Positions 138 to 14,065 of a stretch of DNA of 14,065 nucleotides are shown piece by piece; position 1 is the first letter of the stretch, and every line of letters starts with the position of its first letter. Location of the stretch: NCBI GenBank assembly GCA_963645185.1, contig CAVIRF010000042.1:1-14065 (forward strand). Direction: 5' to 3'. Both the position numbers and the translations under genes were made by a program. This DNA comes from Coprococcus eutactus (lineage in GTDB: Bacteria; Bacillota; Clostridia; Oscillospirales; Butyricicoccaceae). Below the pieces are notes generated by a model. The model was given only the letters and a program-made list of their open reading frames with translations, searched no databases and was not told the DNA's origin.

Positions 138-166
138 TTGACAAATGCGGCGCAAAGTTCTATCAT
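138..166 (+). promoter_or_regulatory. SigA/sigma70-type promoter driving the cstA leader
   Basis: TTGACA (138-143), 17-nt spacer, TATCAT (161-166). The predicted transcription start near 173 lies about 15 nt before the first helix of the leader RNA. Confidence 0.55.
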
Positions 167-187
167 AAAAACCGTCAAAAGGATAAA

Positions 188-500
188 TGCTTTGAACAGG
201 ACACGATTTCCTGTATCACCGCTTTCAGAAAGCCGTCGGTTGTGTGAGACGGCAGCAAGGCACGGAGAAATTATCCCCTGCGAGCAGCTCGAACGAAAGA
301 AAAAGAGTAGTAGTTCGAGACGGAAACCTCCGTTACAGGGTCACGCTTTCCGGCGCAGCGGCACCGGGCGGCGGATGAGCGGCCGGATTTTCTCCGGCAA
401 GCAGAGTGGTAACGCGGAAGTGTAACCGACCGAGTCGGAAATGCCTTCGTCTTTGCAGGTTCTCCCGAAAGAGAGAGCAGGTAAAGACGAGGGCTTTTTT
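188..500 (+). promoter_or_regulatory. T-box riboswitch leader (tRNA-sensing transcription attenuator); candidate specifier AUU (Ile)
   Basis: K-turn at the stem I base: UGC 188-190 pairs with GCA 284-286, UUU loop 191-193, sheared G194-A283 and A195-G282, then CAGG 197-200 pairs with CCUG 277-280. AG-bay-like AGAAA 227-231 is followed by hairpin GCCGUC 232-237 / GACGGC 248-253 with loop GGUUGUGUGA, resembling the stem I distal loop. GAA-AUU-A at 267-273 sits on the 3' side of the internal loop. Stem III hairpin is GCCGGA 382-387 / UCCGGC 393-398. T-box core GCAGAGUGGUAACGCGG (401-417) resembles the consensus GGGUGGUACCGCG. The antiterminator has helix A1 401-406/451-456, a 7-nt bulge UGGUAAC 407-413, and helix A2 414-418/446-450. 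Residues 446-456 are also the 5' arm of the terminator, so the two folds exclude each other. Confidence 0.65.
443..500 (+). terminator. Intrinsic terminator (attenuator) of the cstA leader
   Basis: 14-bp outer stem, GCCUUCGUCUUUGC 443-456 with GUAAAGACGAGGGC 481-494 (includes G-U pairs). An inner UCUC...GAGA extension surrounds a GAAA loop. The stem is followed by UUUUUU 495-500, 66 nt upstream of the cstA ATG. Confidence 0.8.
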
Positions 501-566
501 AGTGCCTGCTTTTCACGCTCATTGACAGAAAAGCCGCAAATCCAAACGGAAAAGAGAAGAAAAGAC

Positions 567-2903: not shown

Positions 2904-3830
2904 ATGAACCTTTTAGAGCAATTTCAGACGATAAAAGAGAACGCGGAGCGCGGCCTTGCGTCGACGCTGCACTTTGAGGCGGAGGGCGCGGAGCTCGTGC
3001 GCAATTTCCGCCCGAATGAGCGGCTGATCCTGCTCGGTGGCGGCAACATCGCGCAGCCGCTCTGCCGCTACGCCGCCGACCTCGGCTTTGAGGTCACTGT
3101 GGCGGACGACCGTCCGACGTTCGCGAACCGGCCGCGCTTTCCGGAAGCGCACACGGTGTACTGCGATCTGTTCGAGGGCGCGATAGATCGAATTGGCATC
3201 GGCGAGGGCGATTATGTCGCGGTCATCACGCGCGGACACCGCTACGATGCGGACTGCCTGCGCAAGATCCTGCGCGGCACGATGCCGAAATACCTCGGCA
3301 TGATCGGCTCAAAGCGGCGCACGGTCGGCCTGCTGAACCTGCTCGAGAGCGAGGGCTTCGACCGGGCGCAGCTGGACGCCATTCACACGCCCATCGGTCT
3401 GGACATCGGCGCGCTGACCGTCAAGGAGATCGCGATCTCCATCGTGGCGGAGCTCATCGCCTGCCGCCGCGCGGACACAAACCGCCGCTCGCACAGCAGC
3501 ATCATGACGAGCGAGGACATCGACCTGCCGCTGCTGCGCTACGTCGCGGACGAGAGCATCGACAAGGTGCTCATGCTCGTGTACGACACGAGCGGCTCGA
3601 CGCCGGTGAAATCCGGCTCCTTCATGGCGGTGGACAGCTCGACGAAGTTCATGGGCACGATCGGCGGCGGATGCAGCGAGAGCGCCGTCCTGCGGCAGGC
3701 CTATTACCTCATCGGCACGGGCGAGAGCAGGTGTGTGACCATCGACATGTCGAACGATGTGGCGGAAAAGGAGGGCATGGTCTGCGGCGGACAGATGAAG
3801 GTGCTGCTCGCAGATCTTTCGAAACAATAA
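2904..3830 (+). CDS. xdhC: XdhC/CoxI-family molybdenum-hydroxylase maturation (accessory) protein with swapped domain order
   Basis: Rossmann-type XdhC_C motifs come first: LILLGGGNIAQPL, VITRGHRYD, YLGMIGSKRR, IHTPIGLDIGALTVKEIAISIVAELIA. XdhC_CoxI motifs follow near the C-terminus: GTIGGGCSESAV and GMVCGGQMKVLL. GGGAG RBS upstream; the gene starts 19 nt after the moaC stop, so the two are likely co-transcribed. Confidence 0.85.
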   Translation: MNLLEQFQTIKENAERGLASTLHFEAEGAELVRNFRPNERLILLGGGNIAQPLCRYAADLGFEVTVADDRPTFANRPRFPEAHTVYCDLFEGAIDRIGIGEGDYVAVITRGHRYDADCLRKILRGTMPKYLGMIGSKRRTVGLLNLLESEGFDRAQLDAIHTPIGLDIGALTVKEIAISIVAELIACRRADTNRRSHSSIMTSEDIDLPLLRYVADESIDKVLMLVYDTSGSTPVKSGSFMAVDSSTKFMGTIGGGCSESAVLRQAYYLIGTGESRCVTIDMSNDVAEKEGMVCGGQMKVLLADLSKQ

Positions 3831-3885: not shown

Positions 3886-4362
3886 TTATTTCGGAAGGGA
3901 AACGCTGTGCGTCTCGCCGTTTTCCGTCCAGTGCACCTCGTCGTCCTGCACGAACAGGCCGGTGCAGCGTCGTCCGCCTGCATTCAGAAAGATCGCGCGG
4001 CCGTCCTGCGTGAGCAGGTAGAGGTTATAATAGTAGTCCGCGGCGTCGCGGTTGCCTGCGGTGTGGCCGAACACAAAGCCGACCATCGCGCCGCCCTCCA
4101 GACGGACATAATTCGTGAAATCGAAGCCGGAGTAGGGCGTCGAGGCGAGGTCAGAGGCCTTCATGCGCTCGCGGTCGTGCTGATAGGCAGGCGTTTCGGT
4201 ATACGCGCCGCCGGGGTAGAGCGCGTCGCAGGACAGATATTTTCTGCCGGGCAGGCAGCAGGCGCTCTGCGCAGGCGCAGCCGCCGCGCCGAGCGGCGTG
4301 CCGCAGTACATGCAGAATTTCGCGCCGTCCGGCAGCGCCTTTCCGCAGTTCATACAAAACAT
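3886..4362 (-). CDS. Zinc-ribbon domain protein, function unknown
   Basis: The N-terminus MFCMNCGKALPDGAKFCMYCGTPL is a CxxC-x10-CxxC zinc ribbon. GGAGAG RBS lies 6 nt before the ATG. The gene starts 12 nt after the stop of the upstream exported-protein gene. Confidence 0.7.
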   Translation of the reverse strand: MFCMNCGKALPDGAKFCMYCGTPLGAAAAPAQSACCLPGRKYLSCDALYPGGAYTETPAYQHDRERMKASDLASTPYSGFDFTNYVRLEGGAMVGFVFGHTAGNRDAADYYYNLYLLTQDGRAIFLNAGGRRCTGLFVQDDEVHWTENGETHSVSLPK

Positions 4363-4374
4363 AGGGGTCTCTCC

Positions 4375-5835
4375 TTATTTCATGTAGGCCGTGATGCCGT
4401 TCGCGTCCATCCACGTGCGCTTGTGCTGCATCAGCGTGTCAAGCACGGGATCGGTGCGCGAAAAACGTTCGCTGAGGTACTTTTGCAGCTTGAACAGGTC
4501 GTCGTAGGTGAGGTAGGGGTAGTCGATATTGCCGTACTCGCCGGTCTGCGAGACCTGATAGTGCAGGTTGTCGTCCGGCAGGACCCAGTCCTCGCCGGTC
4601 TCATCGACCGCGAGCAGCATTTTGTCCGCGAGCGTTCGCAGACTGTCGTCCGCGAGCGTGTCGGCCGCCTTGTACAGCAGCAGGATCTCCGCAAGCTGAT
4701 GGTTCAGACTGGTGTGCGAGACGTTCGACATGTCCTCATGCCAGTAATCCGGGATAAACCAGCCGCTGAGACCGGTCTCGGAATGATAATTCGACGCGAA
4801 ATCCTCGAAAAAGTCGCTGTAGCGGCGCAGCGAATCCCGATAGACATCCGAGGGGAAGCGGTACTCCGCGAGCAGCAGCAGGCTTGCAAACTCGGTATTG
4901 AAACGCGTGTCGTAGAAACCGGCGCCGATGCCGTAATCGCCCTCGAGCCATGTGCTGCCCGACAGCGTCGGCCAGTAACCGGCGTCGCTCTGCTCGGAGA
5001 TCATCGTGTCGAGCATGGCGATGCTGAGGTCGCGCGCCGTGCGGCTCGAACCGGCCTGATAGAGAAAGCTCTTAATAAGGTAGGAGGCCGGGTTGCGGAA
5101 GAAAACGCGGTCGCCGGTCGGAATGTAGGTTTCGGGCGAGGGGGCGTAATATCCGTCGAAGCACCAGCGGCCGTCACCGGCGTTGCGGTAGGTGCTCCAG
5201 AGCGCCGGGATGCCGTCGCGCGCCCAGTCGATGCCGCTGCTGTCCGCGACGGCCAGATAAGTAAAGTCCGCCGCACTGCTGCCCTCCATGCGCGGCGCGC
5301 AGAACGTCAGCCGCCAGCCGTTTTTCGTCTGGGCGGCTTCGATCCAGCCGAGCCAGTTGTCCGCGAGCTGACGCGAGCCGTTCTCGCGGAACGCCCAGAC
5401 CTGCGGCGTGTAGCACAGCGCGGAAAAATCGCTGCCCGTGAGGAAAAAGGCGGTGTTGGAGTGGTATTTTCCGGTGTGGATGGGCTCGTCGTGCCAGACC
5501 TGACCGTCATACCACCGCACGGAAAGCGTGTCGTCCGCGATTTCGGTGGACCAGACCGCACGGGGCCGCAGGGTGTGGCGCGTGGTCTGAAAGCTGCCCA
5601 TCACGCAGCGGTCCTCGTCTCCGAGCGTCCAGCCGCGCAGCAGAAGGACGTTGCTGCCCTGCGGCAGATTGGTCTGGCTGACCTCGACGGTCTCATCACC
5701 GACTTCGTATGTATTCGCGACCGTGCCGAACAGCGCGTCATCCTGCGCGCCTAAGCGCAGCGGCGTGCGGCAGACGCACAGCGCAAGAATGACCGGAACT
5801 GAGGCGAACAGGCAGATTCGTTGCAGAAGTTTCAA
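4375..5835 (-). CDS. Exported or membrane-anchored protein of unknown function (about 486 aa)
   Basis: Long minus-strand ORF. I place the start at TTG 5835-5833 because an AGGAGA RBS (5849-5844) sits 8 nt upstream. The product then begins MKLLQRICLFASVPVILALCVC, a signal-peptide-like N-terminus. The ORF-track extension to 6009 would overlap its own promoter. The C-terminal half (GFYDTRFNTEFA, SHTSLNHQLAEILLLYK) loosely recalls alpha/alpha-toroid epimerase or glycosidase-like folds. I cannot assign a family. Confidence 0.7.
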   Translation of the reverse strand: MKLLQRICLFASVPVILALCVCRTPLRLGAQDDALFGTVANTYEVGDETVEVSQTNLPQGSNVLLLRGWTLGDEDRCVMGSFQTTRHTLRPRAVWSTEIADDTLSVRWYDGQVWHDEPIHTGKYHSNTAFFLTGSDFSALCYTPQVWAFRENGSRQLADNWLGWIEAAQTKNGWRLTFCAPRMEGSSAADFTYLAVADSSGIDWARDGIPALWSTYRNAGDGRWCFDGYYAPSPETYIPTGDRVFFRNPASYLIKSFLYQAGSSRTARDLSIAMLDTMISEQSDAGYWPTLSGSTWLEGDYGIGAGFYDTRFNTEFASLLLLAEYRFPSDVYRDSLRRYSDFFEDFASNYHSETGLSGWFIPDYWHEDMSNVSHTSLNHQLAEILLLYKAADTLADDSLRTLADKMLLAVDETGEDWVLPDDNLHYQVSQTGEYGNIDYPYLTYDDLFKLQKYLSERFSRTDPVLDTLMQHKRTWMDANGITAYMK

Positions 5836-5907
5836 TAAAATGTTCTCCTTTTGCAAAATCGGTATCGCTTTCACAGAAAAGGGAAAGCGGCGGAATATGG
5901 TGCATTC

Positions 5908-5936
5908 AGTATAGCACAGGGCACCGAAAAAGGCAA
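5908..5936 (-). promoter_or_regulatory. Promoter for the exported-protein / zinc-ribbon operon
   Basis: Minus strand reads TTGCCT (5936-5931), 17-nt spacer, TGcTATACT with the -10 at 5913-5908. Confidence 0.5.
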
Positions 5937-5942
5937 CATGCA

Positions 5943-5971
5943 TTGACGAAGCGTGCCCGGCTTGGTATGAT
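5943..5971 (+). promoter_or_regulatory. Promoter for the small acidic protein gene (divergent from the previous promoter)
   Basis: TTGACG (5943-5948), 17-nt spacer, TGgTATGAT with the -10 at 5966-5971, about 30 nt upstream of ATG 6003. Confidence 0.5.
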
Positions 5972-6002
5972 AAAGGCATAACGCGAAAAGGGGAGAGCAG
6001 AC

Positions 6003-6218
6003 ATGGCAAAGATCATTGAATTCGGCACCGCGCCTGACATCGACGCGATGGACGCCGACGCGCTTCGGGACTATCTCGGGGAGATACGCGAGCGCATCGC
6101 GCGCCTCGACGAGGCCGAGCCGGAGGACATGGCGTCCGAGGCCTACGACGAGTGGAGCGAGCAGCACGAAAAGCTGGAGGACATTGCGGACGATATTCTC
6201 GACCGTCTCGAGGAGTAA
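6003..6218 (+). CDS. Small, highly acidic hypothetical protein (71 aa)
   Basis: GGGGAG RBS before ATG 6003, with its own promoter and terminator. I count 25 Asp/Glu and 7 Lys/Arg in 71 residues. The sequence looks predominantly helical. I recognise no family. Confidence 0.6.
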   Translation: MAKIIEFGTAPDIDAMDADALRDYLGEIRERIARLDEAEPEDMASEAYDEWSEQHEKLEDIADDILDRLEE

Positions 6219-6498: not shown

Positions 6499-7374
6499 TT
6501 ATTCGCGGCTGAAAAATCGGTAAAACACAAACAGGAGCAGCAGGTACAGCGCAGCGGTGCAGAGGGCAGTAAATTGAAAATTCTCGACATATACATCATG
6601 CCAGTTGACTGCGTGCCGGGCAAACCCCGTTCCATAGCTGATGGAACTCTGTATGTACGAAGGCCTGTCGCGGCTGCTCAGCAGATCGCTTTCATCGGCG
6701 GTGAGCTCTTCGCCGCAGAGCTGTTTGGTTGCCGAAGGAAAGACCTTCACCACATCGAGATAGCTTTCGAGCTCGGCTCTGCTTTGAAAATTCCAACGCA
6801 GGTCATCCGATTTGATTTCGTAATGGTCGGTTTCCTCGACCGGGGTCTGCGCTGTCCATTCGGTTCCGTCGATGCACACGCGGTTCAGACTCAAAATCTT
6901 CCAGTATTCCGTTGTCACGAGTTTTCCGTAAAGCTCTATGGAGCTGCCGCCCGGACAGGCGTAGAGAGCGCGCAGATCGTCGGCGGCGAAATCGGTGAAA
7001 TCAAGGGAATAATCGCTGTCGACACAATATGCGAACAGGCCGGAGCGCTGCACGGTCTGGTTTCCCTGTGCGTCCTTATACTGAAGAATGACCGGCGTTT
7101 CCCATCCGTCTTGACTGGAGGCAATGGTCAGAAAAGCGCGGAGCTGATACCAGTCCGGCGTGCCGGAGACCGGCATGCTGTCCGGGCGGAGACCATGTTC
7201 AGACAGGAAGGTTTCCACATCGTTCGGCGCGTGCATCGTCCACATAAATGCGCTGTCCAGAGCATCGGTTTTTATCTTCTGTACGCCGAAATACACGAAC
7301 GGCGCGAAAAGCAATGCGAGCGTTATCGCGGCGAGCAAGGTCTGCCGCGCGGCTTTGCTGAACCGTTTTTTCAT
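6499..7374 (-). CDS. Membrane protein of unknown function (N- and C-terminal TM helices)
   Basis: MKKRFSKAARQTLLAAITLALLFAPFVYFGV forms the N-terminal TM or signal anchor. TALCTAALYLLLLFVFYRFF forms the C-terminal TM. The roughly 230-aa middle region is soluble. GGAGGGGA RBS precedes the ATG. The gene starts 38 nt after the guaD stop with no terminator between. Confidence 0.7.
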   Translation of the reverse strand: MKKRFSKAARQTLLAAITLALLFAPFVYFGVQKIKTDALDSAFMWTMHAPNDVETFLSEHGLRPDSMPVSGTPDWYQLRAFLTIASSQDGWETPVILQYKDAQGNQTVQRSGLFAYCVDSDYSLDFTDFAADDLRALYACPGGSSIELYGKLVTTEYWKILSLNRVCIDGTEWTAQTPVEETDHYEIKSDDLRWNFQSRAELESYLDVVKVFPSATKQLCGEELTADESDLLSSRDRPSYIQSSISYGTGFARHAVNWHDVYVENFQFTALCTAALYLLLLFVFYRFFSRE

Positions 7375-7412: not shown

Positions 7413-8753
7413 TCAGTATACCATAAAACGGCACAGAAGCCATCCGAATTTCCGCGAACGAGCGGCAGATTTCCGAACGGTCGCGGCGGTGCGGCGGTCG
7501 AGCACCAGACGGCCCTCCGACCAGACGGCGCAGACATTCGCGGCGCTCATCGTGTACAGCGCGCGCTCGAGGCGCTCGGACAGGCTGAGCGCCCACGGCG
7601 TTTCCGTGAAATCACGGTCGTCGACCACGACGGCGTGCAGCTGGTCGCCTGCGGCAAAACCGTTTCCGGCACCGAAATAACGGTGGCCGGACGTCGTGCC
7701 GAGATAGTACGCCTCGGGAACGGTCAGGAAGTTCGGCTTTTCCGGGTCGGTGAAGTGGCGGATTTTGGAGGCGCGGATGCTCATCGTGACCATCCGGCTG
7801 CCAGAAAGCGACGAGCCTGCGGCGATGTCCGAGCCGAGCGTGACCCAGAGGCCTTCGTTCAGCATCTGCCGCACGGGCGCGATGCCGCTGCACAGATTGA
7901 TGTTGCTGTCCGGGCAGTGCGCCACGACCGCACCGGCCTGCCGGATGGCGCGGCGCTCGCGCGCGTCCGAGTGGACGCAGTGCGCCATGATGGTGTGGTC
8001 CTTCCACAGACCGAATTTATCGTAGCTCTCCCAGTACTGCGCGCAGTCGGGGTGCAGCTCGCGCACCCACGCGATCTCATCGAGGTTTTCCGATAGATGC
8101 GACTGCACATACAGTCCCTTTTCGGCGGAGATTTTTCCGAGCGCCGCCATCAGCTCATCCGTGCAGGCCGGGGTGAAGCGCGGCGTCAGGATGGGCTTGA
8201 TATGGGTGAAGCGGCTGCACTCCGCAAGCCAGCGCAGCGTCTCGCGGATGGACTCCTCGGTGGTCTCCTGAAGGTTTTCGCCGCCGTTGCGGTCCATGTT
8301 CACCTTGCCGACAAAGCCGGTCACGCCTGCGTTTTCCAGCTCCTCCATCAGCACGAGCGTTGCGTCCGTGTGGAGAGAGGAGAACATGCACACGCGCGTG
8401 GTTCCGTTCGCGATGAGGTCATGCGCGAGCCTGCGGTAGACGCGGCGCGCGTAGCCGAGGTCGGCGAATTTCGCCTCGACCGGGAACGTGTAGGTCTTCA
8501 GCCAGTCGAGCAGCGGCAGGTCCATGCCCATGCCGACGTTCGGGAACTGCGGCGCGTGCAGATGCATGTCGGCAAACGACTGCATGATAAGCTTTCCGGT
8601 GCAGTCGAATACCTCGCCATCGAAATCCTGCGGCGCTTTGTGCAGCACCTCGCAGATCGTGCCGTCGTCCTCGAGCAGCAGCGCGCCGTCCGGGATGATC
8701 TCGAGCGTTCCGAGCGCTGGCGCATGAACAATGTCGCCCTTCAAAAGTTTCAT
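7413..8753 (-). CDS. guaD: Guanine deaminase (amidohydrolase superfamily)
   Basis: Collinear with E. coli GuaD: SFADMHLHAPQFPNVG...PLLDWLKTYTFP, ANGTTR, TPRFTP, HLSENLDEIAWVRELHPD, AHCVH, HCPDSNINLCSG, LGSDIAAG. I prefer the start at ATG 8753 (MKLLKG), 8 nt after GGAAAGGA. ATG 8762 is an alternative, and the ORF-track start at 8825 lies inside the riboswitch. The C-terminus extends about 20 aa beyond where E. coli GuaD ends. Confidence 0.92.
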   Translation of the reverse strand: MKLLKGDIVHAPALGTLEIIPDGALLLEDDGTICEVLHKAPQDFDGEVFDCTGKLIMQSFADMHLHAPQFPNVGMGMDLPLLDWLKTYTFPVEAKFADLGYARRVYRRLAHDLIANGTTRVCMFSSLHTDATLVLMEELENAGVTGFVGKVNMDRNGGENLQETTEESIRETLRWLAECSRFTHIKPILTPRFTPACTDELMAALGKISAEKGLYVQSHLSENLDEIAWVRELHPDCAQYWESYDKFGLWKDHTIMAHCVHSDARERRAIRQAGAVVAHCPDSNINLCSGIAPVRQMLNEGLWVTLGSDIAAGSSLSGSRMVTMSIRASKIRHFTDPEKPNFLTVPEAYYLGTTSGHRYFGAGNGFAAGDQLHAVVVDDRDFTETPWALSLSERLERALYTMSAANVCAVWSEGRLVLDRRTAATVRKSAARSRKFGWLLCRFMVY

Positions 8754-8783
8754 TTTTTTCATCCTTTCCGTAATCTGGGCATG

Positions 8784-8825
8784 AAAAAAGTGCCCGTCAG
8801 ATGGAACCTTCCCATCAGCGGACAC
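8784..8825 (-). terminator. Riboswitch expression platform: intrinsic terminator
   Basis: Minus-strand RNA GUGUCCGCUGAUGG-gaagguu-CCAUCUGACGGGCAC followed by UUUUUU. The stem has one mismatch and one bulge. It begins at the last nucleotide of aptamer helix P1 and ends about 30 nt before the guaD start. Confidence 0.7.
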
Positions 8826-9080: not shown

Positions 9081-9115
9081 GGTGAAGAAAGAGAAAATTC
9101 TGGAAGGTGCGGCGT

Positions 9116-11830
9116 ATGAACAAAATGCAGCAGGCAATGCGAGGAACGGTCGCGAAAACCGATCCGCAGGATCGTCAGTATTATCTGCCGACGTGGATGC
9201 ACGCGATGGATACCGCAGGCGTGATGGAATACCTCTGCCGCGAATGGCTGCCGCAGTCGGTTTTCCGGCGGCTGTCCGAGGAGGTCGGAGAGGATATTTT
9301 TCTGGGAGTGTGCTGTCTGCTGGTGCTGCTGCACGACATCGGCAAGCTGATCGCGCTTTTTCAGTCAAAAATTCAAATTCATCTGGACGATTACGCCGGG
9401 TGCAGACTGAATTTTCCGGGAGCATTCAACTATAATATGCCGCACGCGAGAGCGAGCGAAGCAATCCTGCTGAAATACGGCTTTCCGCGCTCGCTGGCGG
9501 CGATCATCGGCGCGCATCACGGAAAGCCGCAGGATGATGACGTGGACAGCGCGATAGAGACCAGTCCGTGCTGCTTTTACGGTGTGGACGAGGAAAAAGA
9601 GGCGTGGGAGACCTGCTGGCGGCAGACGATCGACGCGGCGCTGGAGCAGTGCGGCTTTGCGTCGGTGGAAGAGCTGCCCGAGGTGTCTATGTCCGCGCAA
9701 ATGGTTCTGACCGGCCTGCTCATTATGGCGGACTGGCTCGCGAGCAATACGGATTATTTTCCAGTGATACCGGTCGAGCAGAGCGGCGAGGAAGAGTGGT
9801 ATCCCGAGCGAGTGGACGCCGCGTGGGAGACGATAGACCTGCCTGCCCCGTGGGAAAGTCAGACATTCGGAATGGACGCACAGAAGTTCGACAAGGAATT
9901 CGGCTTTGCACCGAGACATGTTCAGCAGGCGGCGATAAACGCAGGAAACGAAGCGGCCGCGCCGGGGATTTTCATTCTGGAAGCCTCGATGGGATGCGGA
10001 AAAACGGAAGCCAGCCTCGCGCTCGCAGAGATACTCGCGCAGCGGACGGGGAGCGGCGGCCTGTTCTTCGGCCTGCCGACACAGGCGACGGCGAATGGCC
10101 TGTTTTCCCGAGTCAGACAATGGGCGGAGTATCAGTCGTCGGAGGAGAGACACGGCATTCGTCTGGCGCATGGCGCATCCGCGATGAACGCGGAATATCA
10201 GGAGCTGTTTCACGGCTCTGCCGAGATTTCGGAGGACGAAGAGGGCGGTCTGATCGTTCACAGCTGGTTCGAGGGACAAAAACAGGCGCTCCTCGCGGAT
10301 TTTGTCATCGGAACGGTGGATCAGCTGCTGATGGCATCGCTGCAAAATAAGCATTTGATGCTGCGGCATCTGGGACTTGCCGGGAAAGTGGTTATCATAG
10401 ATGAGGTCCATTCGTATTCGCACCATATGAACGCCTATCTGGACCGCACGCTGACATGGCTCGGTGAATACGGCGCGCCGGTCATCGTTCTGTCGGCGAC
10501 GCTGCCGGAGGAGCGGCGAGCAGCGCTCGTGCAGGCTTATTTGCAGGGGTGTTCGCATCAGTCGAAGGCGGTAAAGCTGCCGGAAGATGCCGAATGGCGG
10601 CACAGTCTGGCCTATCCGCTGCTGACATGGACGGACGGCATGGAGGTCAATCAGACCGTGATCGAGACGGACGGAGACAGCAAAACGGTCGAAATTGAAC
10701 GGGAAACGCTCGAAAACCTGTCTGAGCGTCTGCGAGATGAGCTCGCAGAGGGCGGCTGTGCCGGCGTTATCGTCAATACGGTGCGCCGGGCGCAGAAAAT
10801 CGCGGCGGAACTGAGGGAAAAGCTGCCCGAAATGCGCGTGGTTGTGTTCCACTCGCAGTTTGTCATGGCAGACCGCGTGCGGCGCGAGCAGATGCTGCTG
10901 GAGGTGGTAGGCAAGCACTCGACCGCAGAGCAGAGAGACCGGCTGATCGTGGTCGGAACGCAGGTGATCGAGCAGTCTCTCGATTTAGACCTCGATGTGC
11001 TGTTCACCGACCTGTGTCCGATGGACCTGCTGTTGCAGCGCATCGGCCGCCTGCACCGCCATCATCTACGTATCCGTCCGGAACAGCTGCGCGTGCCGCG
11101 CTGTCTCGTGCTGGAGGCGGACGGCGACGAGCTCGAACCGGGCGCGAAGGCGATCTATGGTCCGTGGCTGCTGCTGCGGACAAAAGAGCTGCTGCCAGAG
11201 CAGATCGTGCTGCCGCAGGACATTCCGGTTCTGGTGCAGAAAACCTACCGAAAACCGGAGGAAGCACCGCTTACTGAGCAGGAACGCGCTGCGTGGGAGC
11301 AGTATGAGATGGAAAAACGCGACAGTTACGGAAAGGCGAACAGTTTCCGGCTGACCGCACCAAAGCACAGACGCCGCGGCGTCAGCACGATCGAAGGGAT
11401 TCTGAACGCCGACCCAGGCAGCACCGAGGCAAGCGCCGAAAAAAGCGTGCGCGGCGGCGACCCGTCCATCGAGGTACTGGTGCTTCAGCAGGATGAAAAC
11501 GGGTATCTGTATCTGCTCGGAGCCCCGGAAATGCCGCTGTACGCAGATCATGTGCCGTCGGCATCGGAATGCAGAGAAATCGCAAAGCAGCGCCTGCGGC
11601 TGTCCGGACGCTTCAGCAGGCGATGGATGGTCGATGCAGTGATTGCTGAGCTGGAAGAAAAAACAAAAGCACTCGCGGAATGGCAGCAGTCTCCGTGGCT
11701 GCGCGGCGAGGTTTTCCTGTTGCTGGACGAAAACGGCCGCACCATGCTGCACGGCACGCTGCTGCGCTATTCGGCAGAGGACGGTCTGTGCATCGAAGAG
11801 AAGGAAGAAAATGCCAGAAAAAGAGTTTAA
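9116..11830 (+). CDS. cas3: CRISPR-associated helicase/nuclease Cas3 (HD domain fused to SF2 helicase), type I-E
   Basis: HD nuclease motifs: WMHAMD, LLHDIGK, GAHHGK. Helicase motifs: MGCGKTEA (Walker A), IIDEVHSY (DEVH), SATLP, QRIGRLHRH (motif VI). I prefer ATG 9116 (GGAAGG 8 nt upstream) over the ORF-track GTG at 9107. It is followed by cse1 and cse2. Confidence 0.93.
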   Translation: MNKMQQAMRGTVAKTDPQDRQYYLPTWMHAMDTAGVMEYLCREWLPQSVFRRLSEEVGEDIFLGVCCLLVLLHDIGKLIALFQSKIQIHLDDYAGCRLNFPGAFNYNMPHARASEAILLKYGFPRSLAAIIGAHHGKPQDDDVDSAIETSPCCFYGVDEEKEAWETCWRQTIDAALEQCGFASVEELPEVSMSAQMVLTGLLIMADWLASNTDYFPVIPVEQSGEEEWYPERVDAAWETIDLPAPWESQTFGMDAQKFDKEFGFAPRHVQQAAINAGNEAAAPGIFILEASMGCGKTEASLALAEILAQRTGSGGLFFGLPTQATANGLFSRVRQWAEYQSSEERHGIRLAHGASAMNAEYQELFHGSAEISEDEEGGLIVHSWFEGQKQALLADFVIGTVDQLLMASLQNKHLMLRHLGLAGKVVIIDEVHSYSHHMNAYLDRTLTWLGEYGAPVIVLSATLPEERRAALVQAYLQGCSHQSKAVKLPEDAEWRHSLAYPLLTWTDGMEVNQTVIETDGDSKTVEIERETLENLSERLRDELAEGGCAGVIVNTVRRAQKIAAELREKLPEMRVVVFHSQFVMADRVRREQMLLEVVGKHSTAEQRDRLIVVGTQVIEQSLDLDLDVLFTDLCPMDLLLQRIGRLHRHHLRIRPEQLRVPRCLVLEADGDELEPGAKAIYGPWLLLRTKELLPEQIVLPQDIPVLVQKTYRKPEEAPLTEQERAAWEQYEMEKRDSYGKANSFRLTAPKHRRRGVSTIEGILNADPGSTEASAEKSVRGGDPSIEVLVLQQDENGYLYLLGAPEMPLYADHVPSASECREIAKQRLRLSGRFSRRWMVDAVIAELEEKTKALAEWQQSPWLRGEVFLLLDENGRTMLHGTLLRYSAEDGLCIEEKEENARKRV

Positions 11831-13445
11831 TCTGATCGACGAGCCGTGGGTGCGCGTCATGCGGCAGGACGGCGAAATCGAGGAGGTCTCGCTCCTGGAT
11901 GCGCTCCTGCGAGCCCACGAATTTGCAGATCTCGCAGGAGAAACGCAGACGCAGAATATCGCGGTGCTCCGTCTGCTGCTGGCGGTGCTGCATACCGTTT
12001 TTTCGCGTGTGGACGAAGCCGGAGAGGACGCGCCGCTCGAGGACGAGGACGACGCCTTTGACCGCTGGGGCGCGCTGTGGGAAAACGGCAGTTTTCCGGA
12101 AAAGCCGATCGTAGACTATTTGGAGAAATGGCATGAGCGGTTCTGGCTGTTCCATCCCGAGCGGCCGTTCATGCAGGCGGTCAGTGCGGAGAACGGCACG
12201 CAGTGCGCAGCCTCCAAGCTGATCGGAGAGCTGAGCGAAAGCGGCAACAAGCTGAGGCTGTTTCCGTCTCGCACGGGCGAAGGGAAAAAGTCGGTCAGCT
12301 ATGCGGAAGCTGCAAGGTGGCTGCTGTACTTAAATGGGTTTGATGATGCGGCACTCAAGCCGCATATTCCAAAGGAGCAGCGTCAGAGTACGATCTCGGT
12401 CGCATGGCTTGGAAAACTTGGTCTGGTCTATGCCAAAGGGGACAGCCTGTATGAAACGCTGCTTTTGAACTGCGTTTTCCTGAAAAACGGCTTAGAGCTG
12501 CGGGGAGAGCCGCAGCCGGACTGGGAGAGAGATACACCGCGAGAAAACGAATTGCGTACGATTGCGGTTCCCGACGATAATGCGGCGCTTTTAACAGTCC
12601 GGTCCCGTTTAATCCGGCTGAACCGGGAGCAGGGAAGCGTAAGCGGCTACGGCATTCTCTGCGGTGACTCGTTCAGCGGCGAAAATGCCTTTGCCGAGCA
12701 GATGACAGTATGGCGATATGTGCCGGAGAAAAAGGGACAGGCGGCGTATTATTATCCCCAGATGCATCTGGCAAACCGGCAGATGTGGCGTGATTTTGCC
12801 AACATGTTTACAGAAGCCGCGGATGGAGGCAATACGCATCTGCCCGGCGTTGTCATGTGGGCTGCAGCCCTGCAGAGAGAAGGCCTGCTGTACAGAAAGA
12901 AGTTTATTCAGTTTGCTGTGACGGGAAACCGGTATGACAGCTCGCAGAAAAGCGCAGTGACAGACAGCATCGGTGACAGTCTGACGTTCCACACGGAGCT
13001 GTTTGGTCAGATGTGCGTCGGCTGGCGCAGACGCATTATGGAAGAGATACAGAAATGCGACAATGCAGCGGCGGCAGTCGGACTGCTGGTCAGAAATATT
13101 CACATTGCAGGCGGCGGAGATACCGAAAAAACGTCTGAGCCTGCATCACAGGCTCGGGGAAAATGGTACGAACGGTTAGACAGGCCGTTCCGTGAATGGC
13201 TGAGATCAATCGATCCGGAAAAAGATAGCATCGATGCAAGAACAGCGGAGTGGCAGGAGTATGCACGCAGTGAGGCGCTGCGCCTTGGCAGGGAGCTGGT
13301 TGCGCAGGCGGGAGAAAAGGCGCTGTTTGGTCGGACAATCGAATTGAAAACCGGAGGCAAAGTGAAAAAACAGCATTATTCAGCGCCGGAGGCGTATCTG
13401 TGGTTTCAGGCGAAGATTTATAAAGAGTATCCGAAGGAGGGATAA
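11811..13445 (+). CDS. cse1: Type I-E Cascade large subunit Cse1/CasA (Cas8e)
   Basis: The N-terminus MPEKEFNLIDEPWVRV matches the Cse1 hallmark FNLLxxPWIPV. FWLFHPERPFMQ matches the conserved H..PFMQ motif. The start at ATG 11811 follows GAGAAGGAAG and overlaps the cas3 3' end by 20 nt. The ORF-track start at 11643 is an out-of-frame read through cas3. Confidence 0.88.
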   Translation: MPEKEFNLIDEPWVRVMRQDGEIEEVSLLDALLRAHEFADLAGETQTQNIAVLRLLLAVLHTVFSRVDEAGEDAPLEDEDDAFDRWGALWENGSFPEKPIVDYLEKWHERFWLFHPERPFMQAVSAENGTQCAASKLIGELSESGNKLRLFPSRTGEGKKSVSYAEAARWLLYLNGFDDAALKPHIPKEQRQSTISVAWLGKLGLVYAKGDSLYETLLLNCVFLKNGLELRGEPQPDWERDTPRENELRTIAVPDDNAALLTVRSRLIRLNREQGSVSGYGILCGDSFSGENAFAEQMTVWRYVPEKKGQAAYYYPQMHLANRQMWRDFANMFTEAADGGNTHLPGVVMWAAALQREGLLYRKKFIQFAVTGNRYDSSQKSAVTDSIGDSLTFHTELFGQMCVGWRRRIMEEIQKCDNAAAAVGLLVRNIHIAGGGDTEKTSEPASQARGKWYERLDRPFREWLRSIDPEKDSIDARTAEWQEYARSEALRLGRELVAQAGEKALFGRTIELKTGGKVKKQHYSAPEAYLWFQAKIYKEYPKEG

Positions 13446-13447
13446 AT

Positions 13448-14065
13448 GTGTGGGAACAGAAAAACGGCCATACGCCGCATGAGCTGTCCGGCTGGGTAGA
13501 GCGCCGCATCACGCGCATTCTGGCCATGCCGGAGGGCGGCGCGCAGCGCGCGCTGCTGGCAGAGCTGCGGCGCGGCGTCGGCAAGGCGCCGGGAGAGCTG
13601 CCGCGGCTGTGGGGCGTACTGTTTGAAGAGTTTCCGGAGGAATGGCTGTCGGAACGGGACGGCGCGAGCCGGTATGAGTGGGCGGCGTACCTCGCGCTGA
13701 CGCTGTTTGCCCTGCATCAGCAGAGCAGGGACCCGAAAACCGACCCGATGCACAAGGACGGACAGCCGCTCGGACGGGCGCTCAGCCGTCTGGCAGATGA
13801 AGACGATAGTGAGGGTGCAAGAGAGCGCATTCTCCGGCGCTTTCAGCAGATGGCGACGGCGACGGACATCAAGGGCGCGGCATATCACCTGCGCGGACTG
13901 GTGCAGCTGCTGCGAGCGGCGGATATTCCGCTGGATTATGCGTCGCTCGCATGGGATTTGTATCAGTATCAGAGCAGCAGCAGTGTCGCGGCGGTACGGC
14001 TGCGGTGGGCGCAGGATTTCTATCGCATGAACAAGGATGAAAACGGAAAGGAAGAAGAAAAATGA
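13448..14065 (+). CDS. cse2: Type I-E Cascade small subunit Cse2/CasB (Cas11)
   Basis: Position immediately after cse1. GTG start 7 nt after AGGAGG. The 205-aa Arg/Leu-rich helical protein (RALLAELRRGVGK, YHLRGLVQLLRAA) is typical of Cse2. The stop TGA is at 14063-14065, and ATG 14062-14064 overlaps it, probably the start of cas7, which is cut off by the window. Confidence 0.8.
   Translation: MWEQKNGHTPHELSGWVERRITRILAMPEGGAQRALLAELRRGVGKAPGELPRLWGVLFEEFPEEWLSERDGASRYEWAAYLALTLFALHQQSRDPKTDPMHKDGQPLGRALSRLADEDDSEGARERILRRFQQMATATDIKGAAYHLRGLVQLLRAADIPLDYASLAWDLYQYQSSSSVAAVRLRWAQDFYRMNKDENGKEEEK

Follow-up and report, generated by a model that had tools for sequence, protein, structure and literature searches.

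The cstA locus and its leader

The stretch of DNA analysed here (the window) comprises positions 1 to 14,065 of contig CAVIRF010000042.1 of the Coprococcus eutactus assembly GCA_963645185.1, and coordinates are positions in this whole window unless another locus is named. Its forward strand carries a gene for a 580-aa transporter of the CstA family (567-2309, +; Pfam PF02554), preceded by a structured leader in which an initial annotation had recognized a transcriptional T-box riboswitch. The elements of the leader and of its transcription unit all lie on the forward (+) strand. The unit opens with a sigma-70-type promoter, TTGACA-17 nt-TATCAT (138-166), which agrees with the consensus at 11 of 12 positions and is the sole promoter-like site on that strand within positions 1-700. 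About 17 nt downstream of it begins the T-box leader (183-457), which extends from stem I through the last strand of the antiterminator. Inspection of the sequence 3' of cstA reveals a terminator (2326-2361) with the hairpin CCGGCUUUC/GAGAGCCGG and a U-run, and the next gene, moaC, starts at 2408. Since cstA has this terminator of its own, the unit is monocistronic, and with promoter, leader, gene and terminator it is self-contained.

Two reading frames that overlap the T-box RNA were considered and rejected as spurious. One is a 95-aa frame with a TTG start over the leader (138-425, +), and the other begins at the in-frame ATG 441 and would extend cstA by 42 codons (441-566, +); both overlap the structured RNA, and the orthologous proteins all align from the ATG at 567.

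In a permissive Rfam scan of the leader, the T-box family RF00230 matches 183-457 (+) with 91.5 bits and an E-value of 1e-20, covering model positions 1-219 of 219, while the protein matches PF02554 with an E-value of 1.3e-145 (486.8 bits). A chance resemblance to a T-box is excluded by the E-value together with the covariation described below. The proposal of a transcriptional T-box in front of a CstA-family gene is thus borne out, and nearly every structural element that the initial annotation had named is found in its place, both in the model alignment and in the raw sequence; the specifier codon is the one correction.

The leader is not peculiar to this contig. We compared two samples of orthologous loci. 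The first, obtained by scanning one genome per species, comprises 80 loci whose CstA proteins are 78-96% identical to that of the window; the closest is that of Agathobaculum hominis (96%), and the others come from Faecalibacterium, Gemmiger, Subdoligranulum, Lachnospira and further gut Clostridia. The second comprises 80 metagenome loci with 72-92% identity, which overlap in species with the first, so that the samples are not independent. The T-box core RRRR-UGGUA[A/C]CGCG is present on the coding strand 136-355 nt upstream of cstA in 54 of the 80 first-sample loci and in 67 of the 80 loci of the second sample. In the first sample the leader of L062 is cut by a contig end and L013 holds a degraded copy. 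Rfam detects a full-length T-box in every tested locus with the core and in none of the tested loci without it. Altogether, the leader precedes about 120 of 160 orthologous cstA loci, or about three quarters, across gut Clostridia including Agathobaculum, Faecalibacterium and Lachnospira. When these leaders are aligned, the K-turn and the UGGU of the T-box bulge are kept, and stem I, the antiterminator and the terminator all covary.

Stem I and the specifier codon

Stem I occupies 189-285. In the RF00230 alignment its base is a K-turn formed by GC189-190 and UUUGAA191-196 opposite CGA281-283 and GC284-285, followed by a basal helix in which CAGG197-200 pairs with CCUG277-280; the pairs of both are invariant in 43 distinct orthologous leaders. 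Further up, the same alignment places an AG bulge at 226-231 and a distal hairpin at 232-253 (helix 232-237/248-253, loop 238-247, with GUGA at 244-247), which are parts of the tRNA-elbow platform. The distal helix displays compensatory changes at three pairs among the 43 leaders. The K-turn, the AG bay and the distal hairpin with its GUGA loop had all been recognized beforehand, and the alignment agrees.

Single-sequence folding is of little use for this domain: the fold has a z-score of -0.82 and does not reproduce the T-box structure, stem I being reliant on non-canonical motifs. For this reason we turned to covariation. RNAalifold recovers the stem I helices unaided from the 43 distinct stem I sequences, with compensatory changes at 9 of 16 pairs. 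When the full stem I structure is imposed on the same alignment, 94.9% of the cells hold standard pairs, compared with 29-54% when the partners are slid by 1-3 columns, and 110 cells are changed on both sides, compared with 8-27 for the slid partners; ten pairs show compensatory changes. None of 500 shuffles reached the covariation score of stem I.

This analysis also delimits the specifier loop. The helix above the loop (207-270), recovered by RNAalifold without guidance, consists of U207-A270, U208-A269, U209-A268, C210-G265 and C211-G264, and all six of its alignment pairs have changed on both sides among the orthologues. The columns that the covarying helices leave unpaired correspond to UU-AUC-C (271-276) on the 3' side of the loop, with ACACGA (201-206) on the opposite strand. 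The predicted specifier is therein AUC (273-275), an isoleucine codon, which lies on the codon columns of RF00230. The same triplet is picked by the rule of the T-box database TBDB, according to which the specifier occupies positions 2-4 counted from the 3' end of the specifier bulge (PMC7778990).

The initial annotation had arrived at the same amino acid through a different triplet, AUU at 270-272, read as part of a GAA-codon-purine layout, GAA-AUU-A. The string GAAAUUA is indeed present at 267-273, and such a layout recalls the GAA-GGC-A of glyQ leaders. The resemblance appears coincidental: the GAA and the first base of this AUU are helical, as they lie inside the helix above the specifier loop whose six pairs all covary, and a C (C276), not a purine, follows the AUC codon. 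Nor is the AUU conserved. Leaders of the A. butyriciproducens type have GCU in its place while AUC stays (GCU-AUC-C), and the leucine-type leaders have CUC as the homologous triplet, with a single base between it and the CCUG helix. With the Rfam codon columns and the TBDB rule (PMC7778990) both designating AUC, it is very improbable that AUU is the triplet pairing with the tRNA. The amino acid itself is unaffected, because AUC likewise codes for isoleucine.

A second departure from a plain AUC reading would be dual specificity, as in reported T-boxes with two codons: UUA (271-273, leucine) overlaps AUC (273-275), so that either uncharged tRNA might induce cstA. A leucine codon, UUA or CUA, overlaps AUC in the window as well as in L001, L025, L003, L004 and L055, and the ancestral signal of the family is leucine. 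The overlapping leucine codon is missing, however, from L022 (GCA) and L078 (UCA), and the UUA register lies outside the specifier frame preferred by the TBDB rule. Pyrimidines occupy the two positions before the codon in nearly all leaders, whichever codon they have, and a YYA triplet is a leucine codon half the time by chance; we therefore judged the overlap to be a chance one, and regard a dual signal as highly unlikely.

The base 3' of the specifier is A in 64, G in 23 and C in 31 leaders of the whole family. A purine at this position is usual in T-boxes, though not obligatory for membership. Next to AUC the base is C in 17 leaders and A in three (L101, L147 and L162). The rule that C always follows AUC, which is true of the first sample, is broken by these three leaders of the second and amounts to a tendency only.

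The antiterminator and the terminator

Between stem I and the regulatory hairpins the RF00230 alignment identifies two further elements that the initial annotation had left unmentioned: stem II (288-319), in which CUCGAAC288-294 pairs with GUUCGAG313-319 around a purine-rich GAAA...AGUA loop, and stem IIA/B (321-332), in which CGG321-323 pairs with CCG330-332. An insertion of 31 nt relative to RF00230, specific to this lineage (336-366), separates stem IIA/B from stem III, which is formed by GCCGGA382-387 and UCCGGC393-398 (382-398).

The antiterminator (401-456) starts two nucleotides 3' of stem III, as had been proposed. G401, C402 and AGAG403-406 pair with CUUU451-454, G455 and C456, GCGGA414-418 pairs with UUCGU446-450, and an extra hairpin is accommodated inside it at 420-445. 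Inspection of the sequence shows the 7-nt T-box bulge UGGUAAC (407-413) in the context AGAG-UGGUAAC-GCGGA (403-418). Every leader found has the UGGU of this bulge unchanged, and these four bases are predicted to pair with the ACCA-3' terminus of uncharged tRNAs whose discriminator is A73. The antiterminator is the unconstrained minimum-energy fold of 399-457, at -18.8 kcal/mol.

Folding likewise reveals an intrinsic terminator hairpin (443-494) with a lower stem of 14 bp and an upper stem of 6 bp, followed by U495-500. A simple terminator scanner had missed this hairpin, the apical part of which exceeds the loop limit of the program. The strand 446-456 is shared, serving as the 3' strand of the antiterminator and as the 5' arm of the terminator, and folding of both conformers confirms this double role along with the greater strength of the terminator. 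The terminator alone has -34.5 kcal/mol, and its region has a z-score of -5.9 against shuffles; the terminator conformer reaches -44.5 kcal/mol compared with -26.9 kcal/mol for the forced antiterminator, a gap of about 18 kcal/mol. T-boxes are expected to show this kind of energetic balance, with a weak antiterminator, in need of help, opposed to a strong terminator that forms by default.

Both conformers leave their mark on the alignment of 39 distinct leaders. Paired cells amount to 94.9% for the antiterminator, compared with 36-59% for slid partners, and to 91.9% for the lower stem of the terminator, compared with 43-54%. Within the shared strand, one position covaries both with its partner in the antiterminator (G-C in 23 and A-U in 16 leaders) and with its partner in the terminator (C-G in 20, U-A in 12 and U-G in 4). 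Such three-way covariation is the prediction of a two-conformer switch.

A probable tRNA-sensing switch in front of cstA

What could be the function of these structures? The leader is very probably a canonical transcription-attenuating T-box riboswitch that controls cstA and reads isoleucine through AUC. Transcription would start from the promoter at 138-166, and tRNA-Ile would be docked by stem I (189-285), whose contacts with it would be the AUC codon (273-275) and the distal platform. The free ACCA end of an uncharged tRNA would then pair with UGGU 407-410 and stabilize the weak antiterminator (401-456), with read-through into cstA as the outcome. With a charged tRNA, the far more stable terminator (443-494) and its U-run would form, and transcription would stop before cstA. 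The transporter would then be made when the charging of isoleucyl-tRNA falls, and in most relatives the same cassette would respond to leucine through CUC; the job of the transporter would presumably be to restore the supply of leucine and isoleucine. We infer tRNA binding and read-through from the arrangement of these elements, and the role of the transporter is likewise deduced from what the leader appears to read.

Several points weigh against this interpretation. The gathering score of RF00230 is 93 bits, so that the window leader falls 1.5 bits short of it in spite of a significant full-length match. Because the match is under this score, Rfam with default settings reports no T-box in the whole window, only the purine riboswitch. 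The shortfall is due to two insertions relative to the model, the 31 nt at 336-366 and 26 nt in the antiterminator loop, and orthologous leaders pass the threshold: L048 with 107.1, L158 with 103.4, L001 with 95.5 and L147 with 93.4 bits. The 3' side of the specifier loop contains no unpaired GAA motif, and the specifier is followed by C276 instead of the usual purine. About a quarter of the orthologous cstA loci do without the leader, which indicates that T-box control is not obligatory. Finally, the anticodon GAU and the discriminator A73 expected of the cognate tRNA-Ile are those usual in bacterial tRNA-Ile, and the window itself holds no tRNA-Ile gene.

The leader might also be imagined as a relic that no longer regulates cstA, as has been suggested for the T-box beside cstA1 in Bacillus methanolicus, where a transcription break lies between the two and their link was doubted (PMC4342826). 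A degraded copy of the leader in L013 also speaks for this view. Such a break downstream of a T-box is, however, what an attenuator in the OFF state yields. Moreover, no functional element has been lost from some 120 leaders, stem I, the antiterminator and the terminator show compensatory changes, and the specifier is confined to two codons. The U-run is present in 54 of 54 first-sample leaders, and the distance from the terminator to the start codon of cstA is a short 53-120 nt in nearly all of them (208-249 nt in L017, L019 and L036); in the window no open reading frame (ORF) intervenes. A relic is hardly plausible on these grounds, and regulation of cstA by the T-box is the reading that we retain.

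Specifier switching and possible spread of the cassette

The orthologous leaders modify the identity of the signal. Among 118 leaders with an assignable specifier, 98 carry CUC (leucine) and 20 carry AUC (isoleucine), with no third codon. Mapped by parsimony onto a neighbour-joining tree (158 CstA proteins), the specifier has changed between CUC and AUC at least eight times, and the leader has been gained or lost at least eight times. The CstA proteins of L055 (AUC) and L138 (CUC) are at a distance of 0.002. Since the same leader mostly carries CUC in the orthologues, the predicted signal is 'leucine or isoleucine' and not isoleucine in particular. The invariant UGGU fits the discriminator A73 that tRNA-Leu and tRNA-Ile have in common. 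Retuning of the specifier in otherwise near-identical leaders constitutes a clean natural example of such a switch.

Comparison of the cstA coding regions of L001-L162 gives a CstA identity of 80-88% between Oscillospiraceae (Faecalibacterium, Agathobaculum) and Lachnospiraceae (Lachnospira), far more than would be expected from vertical descent between these families. We sought conserved gene neighbours as a functional clue and found none, the flanks of the cassette varying by genome and including GH28, AraC, thiD, a Cache sensor and an Iso_dh gene. High identity across families combined with unrelated flanks suggests that the T-box-cstA unit has spread horizontally as a whole.

Two cstA paralogues, L025 and L062, occur in one metagenome-assembled genome (UQVU01, 'Butyricicoccus sp. 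UMGS682'), with proteins 96% and 89% identical to that of the window. Both have a T-box sequence upstream; L025 reads AUC, and L062 is cut by the contig end before the specifier. These copies may be tuned to different amino acids.

In the orthologues that have no T-box, Rfam finds no other known RNA element upstream of cstA. The Gemmiger/Subdoligranulum group (L041, L002, L005, L009, L058 and L077; about 1330-1500 in these loci) has a short untranslated region in place of the T-box, with a promoter TTGACA-17-TAAAGT in a conserved AT-rich region that contains repeated TTGTCAA/TTGACAA strings. In the AT-rich region upstream of the T-box-less cstA, AAATTTTCTAC agrees with the CodY-box consensus at 11 of 15 positions, a weak resemblance that makes it a candidate only. 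If CodY, a sensor of branched-chain amino acids, had replaced the T-box there, this would be an independent tie of cstA to leucine and isoleucine.

Other RNA elements occur around some of the orthologous genes. Two Lachnospira-type loci, L017 and L019, have about 140 nt more between the T-box terminator and cstA than most other first-sample leaders do, and in L017 this stretch contains a sub-threshold match to the Clostridiales-1 RNA (1302-1452, +), with 39.8 bits against a cutoff of 48. A strong Clostridiales-1 match (131.6 bits) is located in L155 (13-187, -), upstream and on the opposite strand. TPP riboswitches are found upstream on the opposite strand in L003 (823-925, -; beside thiD), L072 (1081-1184, -) and L155 (294-398, -). 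L109 has a sub-threshold glycine-GGAnGA match (17-175, -), and L061 has a tRNA and a SAM riboswitch downstream of cstA (3388-3560, +).

The transporter and its possible substrate

The window CstA belongs to PF02554 (TC 2.A.114), and it is 37% identical to CstA and 36% to BtsT of Escherichia coli, over the N-terminal ~370 aa only. It is 120-135 aa shorter than either, with a divergent C-terminal third. The conserved N-terminal core with the motif CGAVSGFH is common to it and the pyruvate symporters. Among the 120 homologues listed, all are at least 92% identical except one at 84%, and the metagenome scan follows the same orthologue group down to 72%. The window protein has no relative in the PDB.

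We infer from the specifiers that the cstA gene is wanted when the charging of leucyl- or isoleucyl-tRNA drops. As substrates one may consider leucine and isoleucine themselves, peptides in which they occur, the 2-oxo acids from which they are made, or pyruvate as a starting compound of their biosynthesis. The initial annotation had tied this paralogue to the acquisition of amino acids or peptides and not to pyruvate uptake, which would be one of these options. The CstA family was first described as a peptide transporter, and older work tied it to peptide use.

More recent data point to pyruvate. Every member of the family with a direct uptake assay transports this compound, E. coli CstA with very narrow specificity (PMC7730263; PMC5847655); a cstA mutant of Clostridioides difficile is impaired in pyruvate use (bioRxiv 10.1101/2021.01.23.427917). 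The window protein could accordingly be a pyruvate importer, induced by leucine or isoleucine starvation as a supply of carbon precursor for branched-chain amino-acid synthesis and not for the import of leucine, isoleucine, peptides or branched 2-oxo acids. Pyruvate is a precursor of both amino acids in question. There is a regulatory parallel as well, since the biosynthetic ilv-leu operon of B. subtilis is itself controlled by a leucine (CUC) T-box.

Several observations argue against the pyruvate importer. The window protein is too distant from the characterized symporters for their function to be transferred: beyond the 36-37% identity, limited to the N-terminal two thirds, and the missing 120-135 aa, it scores 231.3 bits against the cutoff of 1188 of the NCBIfam pyruvate-symporter equivalog NF011590, with residues 2-355 aligned. 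In E. coli, ybdD adjoins cstA and yjiX adjoins btsT, both being partner genes of the PF04328 family. No PF04328 partner gene and no LytS/LytTR sensor, the context typical of pyruvate systems, stands by cstA in the window, where the terminator and then moaC follow, or in the sampled loci. A shortage of pyruvate is improbable in anaerobes that live by glycolysis and make butyrate. The logic of feeding pyruvate into branched-chain amino acids would lead one to expect a valine specifier equally, and none occurs in 118 leaders. Because of this absence and of the improbable shortage of pyruvate in fermenters, we rank the pyruvate importer lower and consider it rather unlikely.

As a pyruvate function cannot be carried over from the relatives, the T-box is the best functional clue available. 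We hypothesize, tentatively and with less than even confidence, that the CstA proteins of the short type (~580 aa) found in gut Clostridia do not act as pyruvate symporters and instead import leucine and isoleucine or a source of both, such as hydrophobic di- and tripeptides or, chemically related to pyruvate, the branched-chain 2-oxo acids. As part of the same hypothesis, the promoter-T-box-cstA-terminator cassette would spread horizontally between Oscillospiraceae and Lachnospiraceae, each host retuning it to its own limiting amino acid by exchanging one specifier base, C for A or the reverse. If true, this would settle part of the 'peptide or pyruvate' ambiguity of CstA and would define a route of branched-chain amino-acid uptake in Faecalibacterium prausnitzii and its relatives.

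Other features of the window

The window contains a second riboswitch, a purine riboswitch aptamer (RF00167; 8809-8908, -) that scores 54.5 bits where the cutoff is 37. Immediately downstream of it is a gene of the amidohydrolase family (7413-8825, -), whose product resembles guanine deaminase. Downstream of the cstA unit are moaC (2408-2884) and an xdhC-like gene (2904-3830), and their presence near by suggests a neighbourhood of purine catabolism and molybdenum-cofactor genes. Two ORFs, of 544 aa (4375-6009, -) and 291 aa (6499-7374, -), have N-terminal hydrophobic segments and no Pfam match, and they are adjoined by a gene for a zinc-ribbon protein (3886-4362, -). The end of the window is occupied by the start of a type I-E CRISPR-Cas operon (9107-14065, +), with cas3 (HD and helicase domains; 9107-11830), cse1 to 13445 and cse2 from 13448 to the window end; no CRISPR array is located within the window.

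Comparison with known systems

The T-box mechanism is textbook knowledge, and among the classical examples from B. subtilis the ileS leader reads AUC and the ilv-leu leader reads CUC. Like these canonical Firmicutes T-boxes and the RF00230 model, the window leader has the K-turn, the specifier loop, the AG bulge with the distal loop, stem II, stem IIA/B, stem III, the UGGN bulge and an overlapping terminator, and the cstA leaders share their AUC and CUC specifiers with the isoleucine and leucine T-boxes. It differs from them in its insertions of 31 nt (336-366) and 26 nt (antiterminator loop), in the lack of an unpaired GAA in the specifier loop and in the C, rather than a purine, after the codon. 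The main difference is in the target, which is a CstA-family transporter instead of a synthetase, a biosynthetic operon or a recognized amino-acid permease.

Transporters as such are known T-box targets. The branched-chain amino-acid transporter genes brnQ/braB and yvbW are T-box-regulated, with specificity predicted from their specifier codons (Wels et al. 2008, PMC2494555). The window cstA is comparable in being a transporter gene behind a T-box of the leucine/isoleucine type, where the specifier would predict the amino-acid pool that is served; in contrast to those proteins, which are of the LIVCS or APC type, its product is a CstA (TC 2.A.114). With CstA and BtsT of E. coli and Salmonella and with C. 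difficile CstA, which are pyruvate/H+ symporters, the window protein shares membership in PF02554. Those symporters are controlled by CRP/CsrA, BtsSR or a LytSR-type sensor, whereas the window cstA appears to be under a tRNA-sensing RNA, and it has no ybdD/yjiX-like partner gene, unlike E. coli cstA and btsT.

To the initial annotation CstA was not known as a standard member of the T-box regulon, and this agrees with our not finding it in the regulon surveys of Wels 2008 (PMC2494555) and Sun 2013, the two surveys that the comparison covers. A full-text literature search for T-box together with cstA produced no assignment beyond PMC4342826, and apparent matches in T-box papers on Staphylococcus aureus and C. 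difficile turned out to be false. Leaders that pass the Rfam cutoff are probably already present in automated databases. Real T-boxes with lineage-specific insertions may slip just below that cutoff and be missed by default scans, which has consequences for annotation.

T-box specifiers are among the few clues to the role of an uncharacterized transporter that can be read from sequence alone. Here they mark a distinct CstA clade behind a leucine/isoleucine T-box in very abundant butyrate producers of the human gut (Faecalibacterium, Agathobaculum, Lachnospira), and thereby offer a concrete hypothesis on the acquisition of branched-chain amino acids by these bacteria.

The only published mention that we found of a T-box beside cstA comes from the transcriptome of Bacillus methanolicus MGA3, in which a T-box upstream of cstA1 was reported with no amino acid assigned and its regulation of cstA1 was thought improbable (PMC4342826). 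Unlike that case, with which the comparison is by description only, the link in gut Clostridia is kept across about 120 loci with covariation. The element described here is a canonical T-box with an unusual target family.

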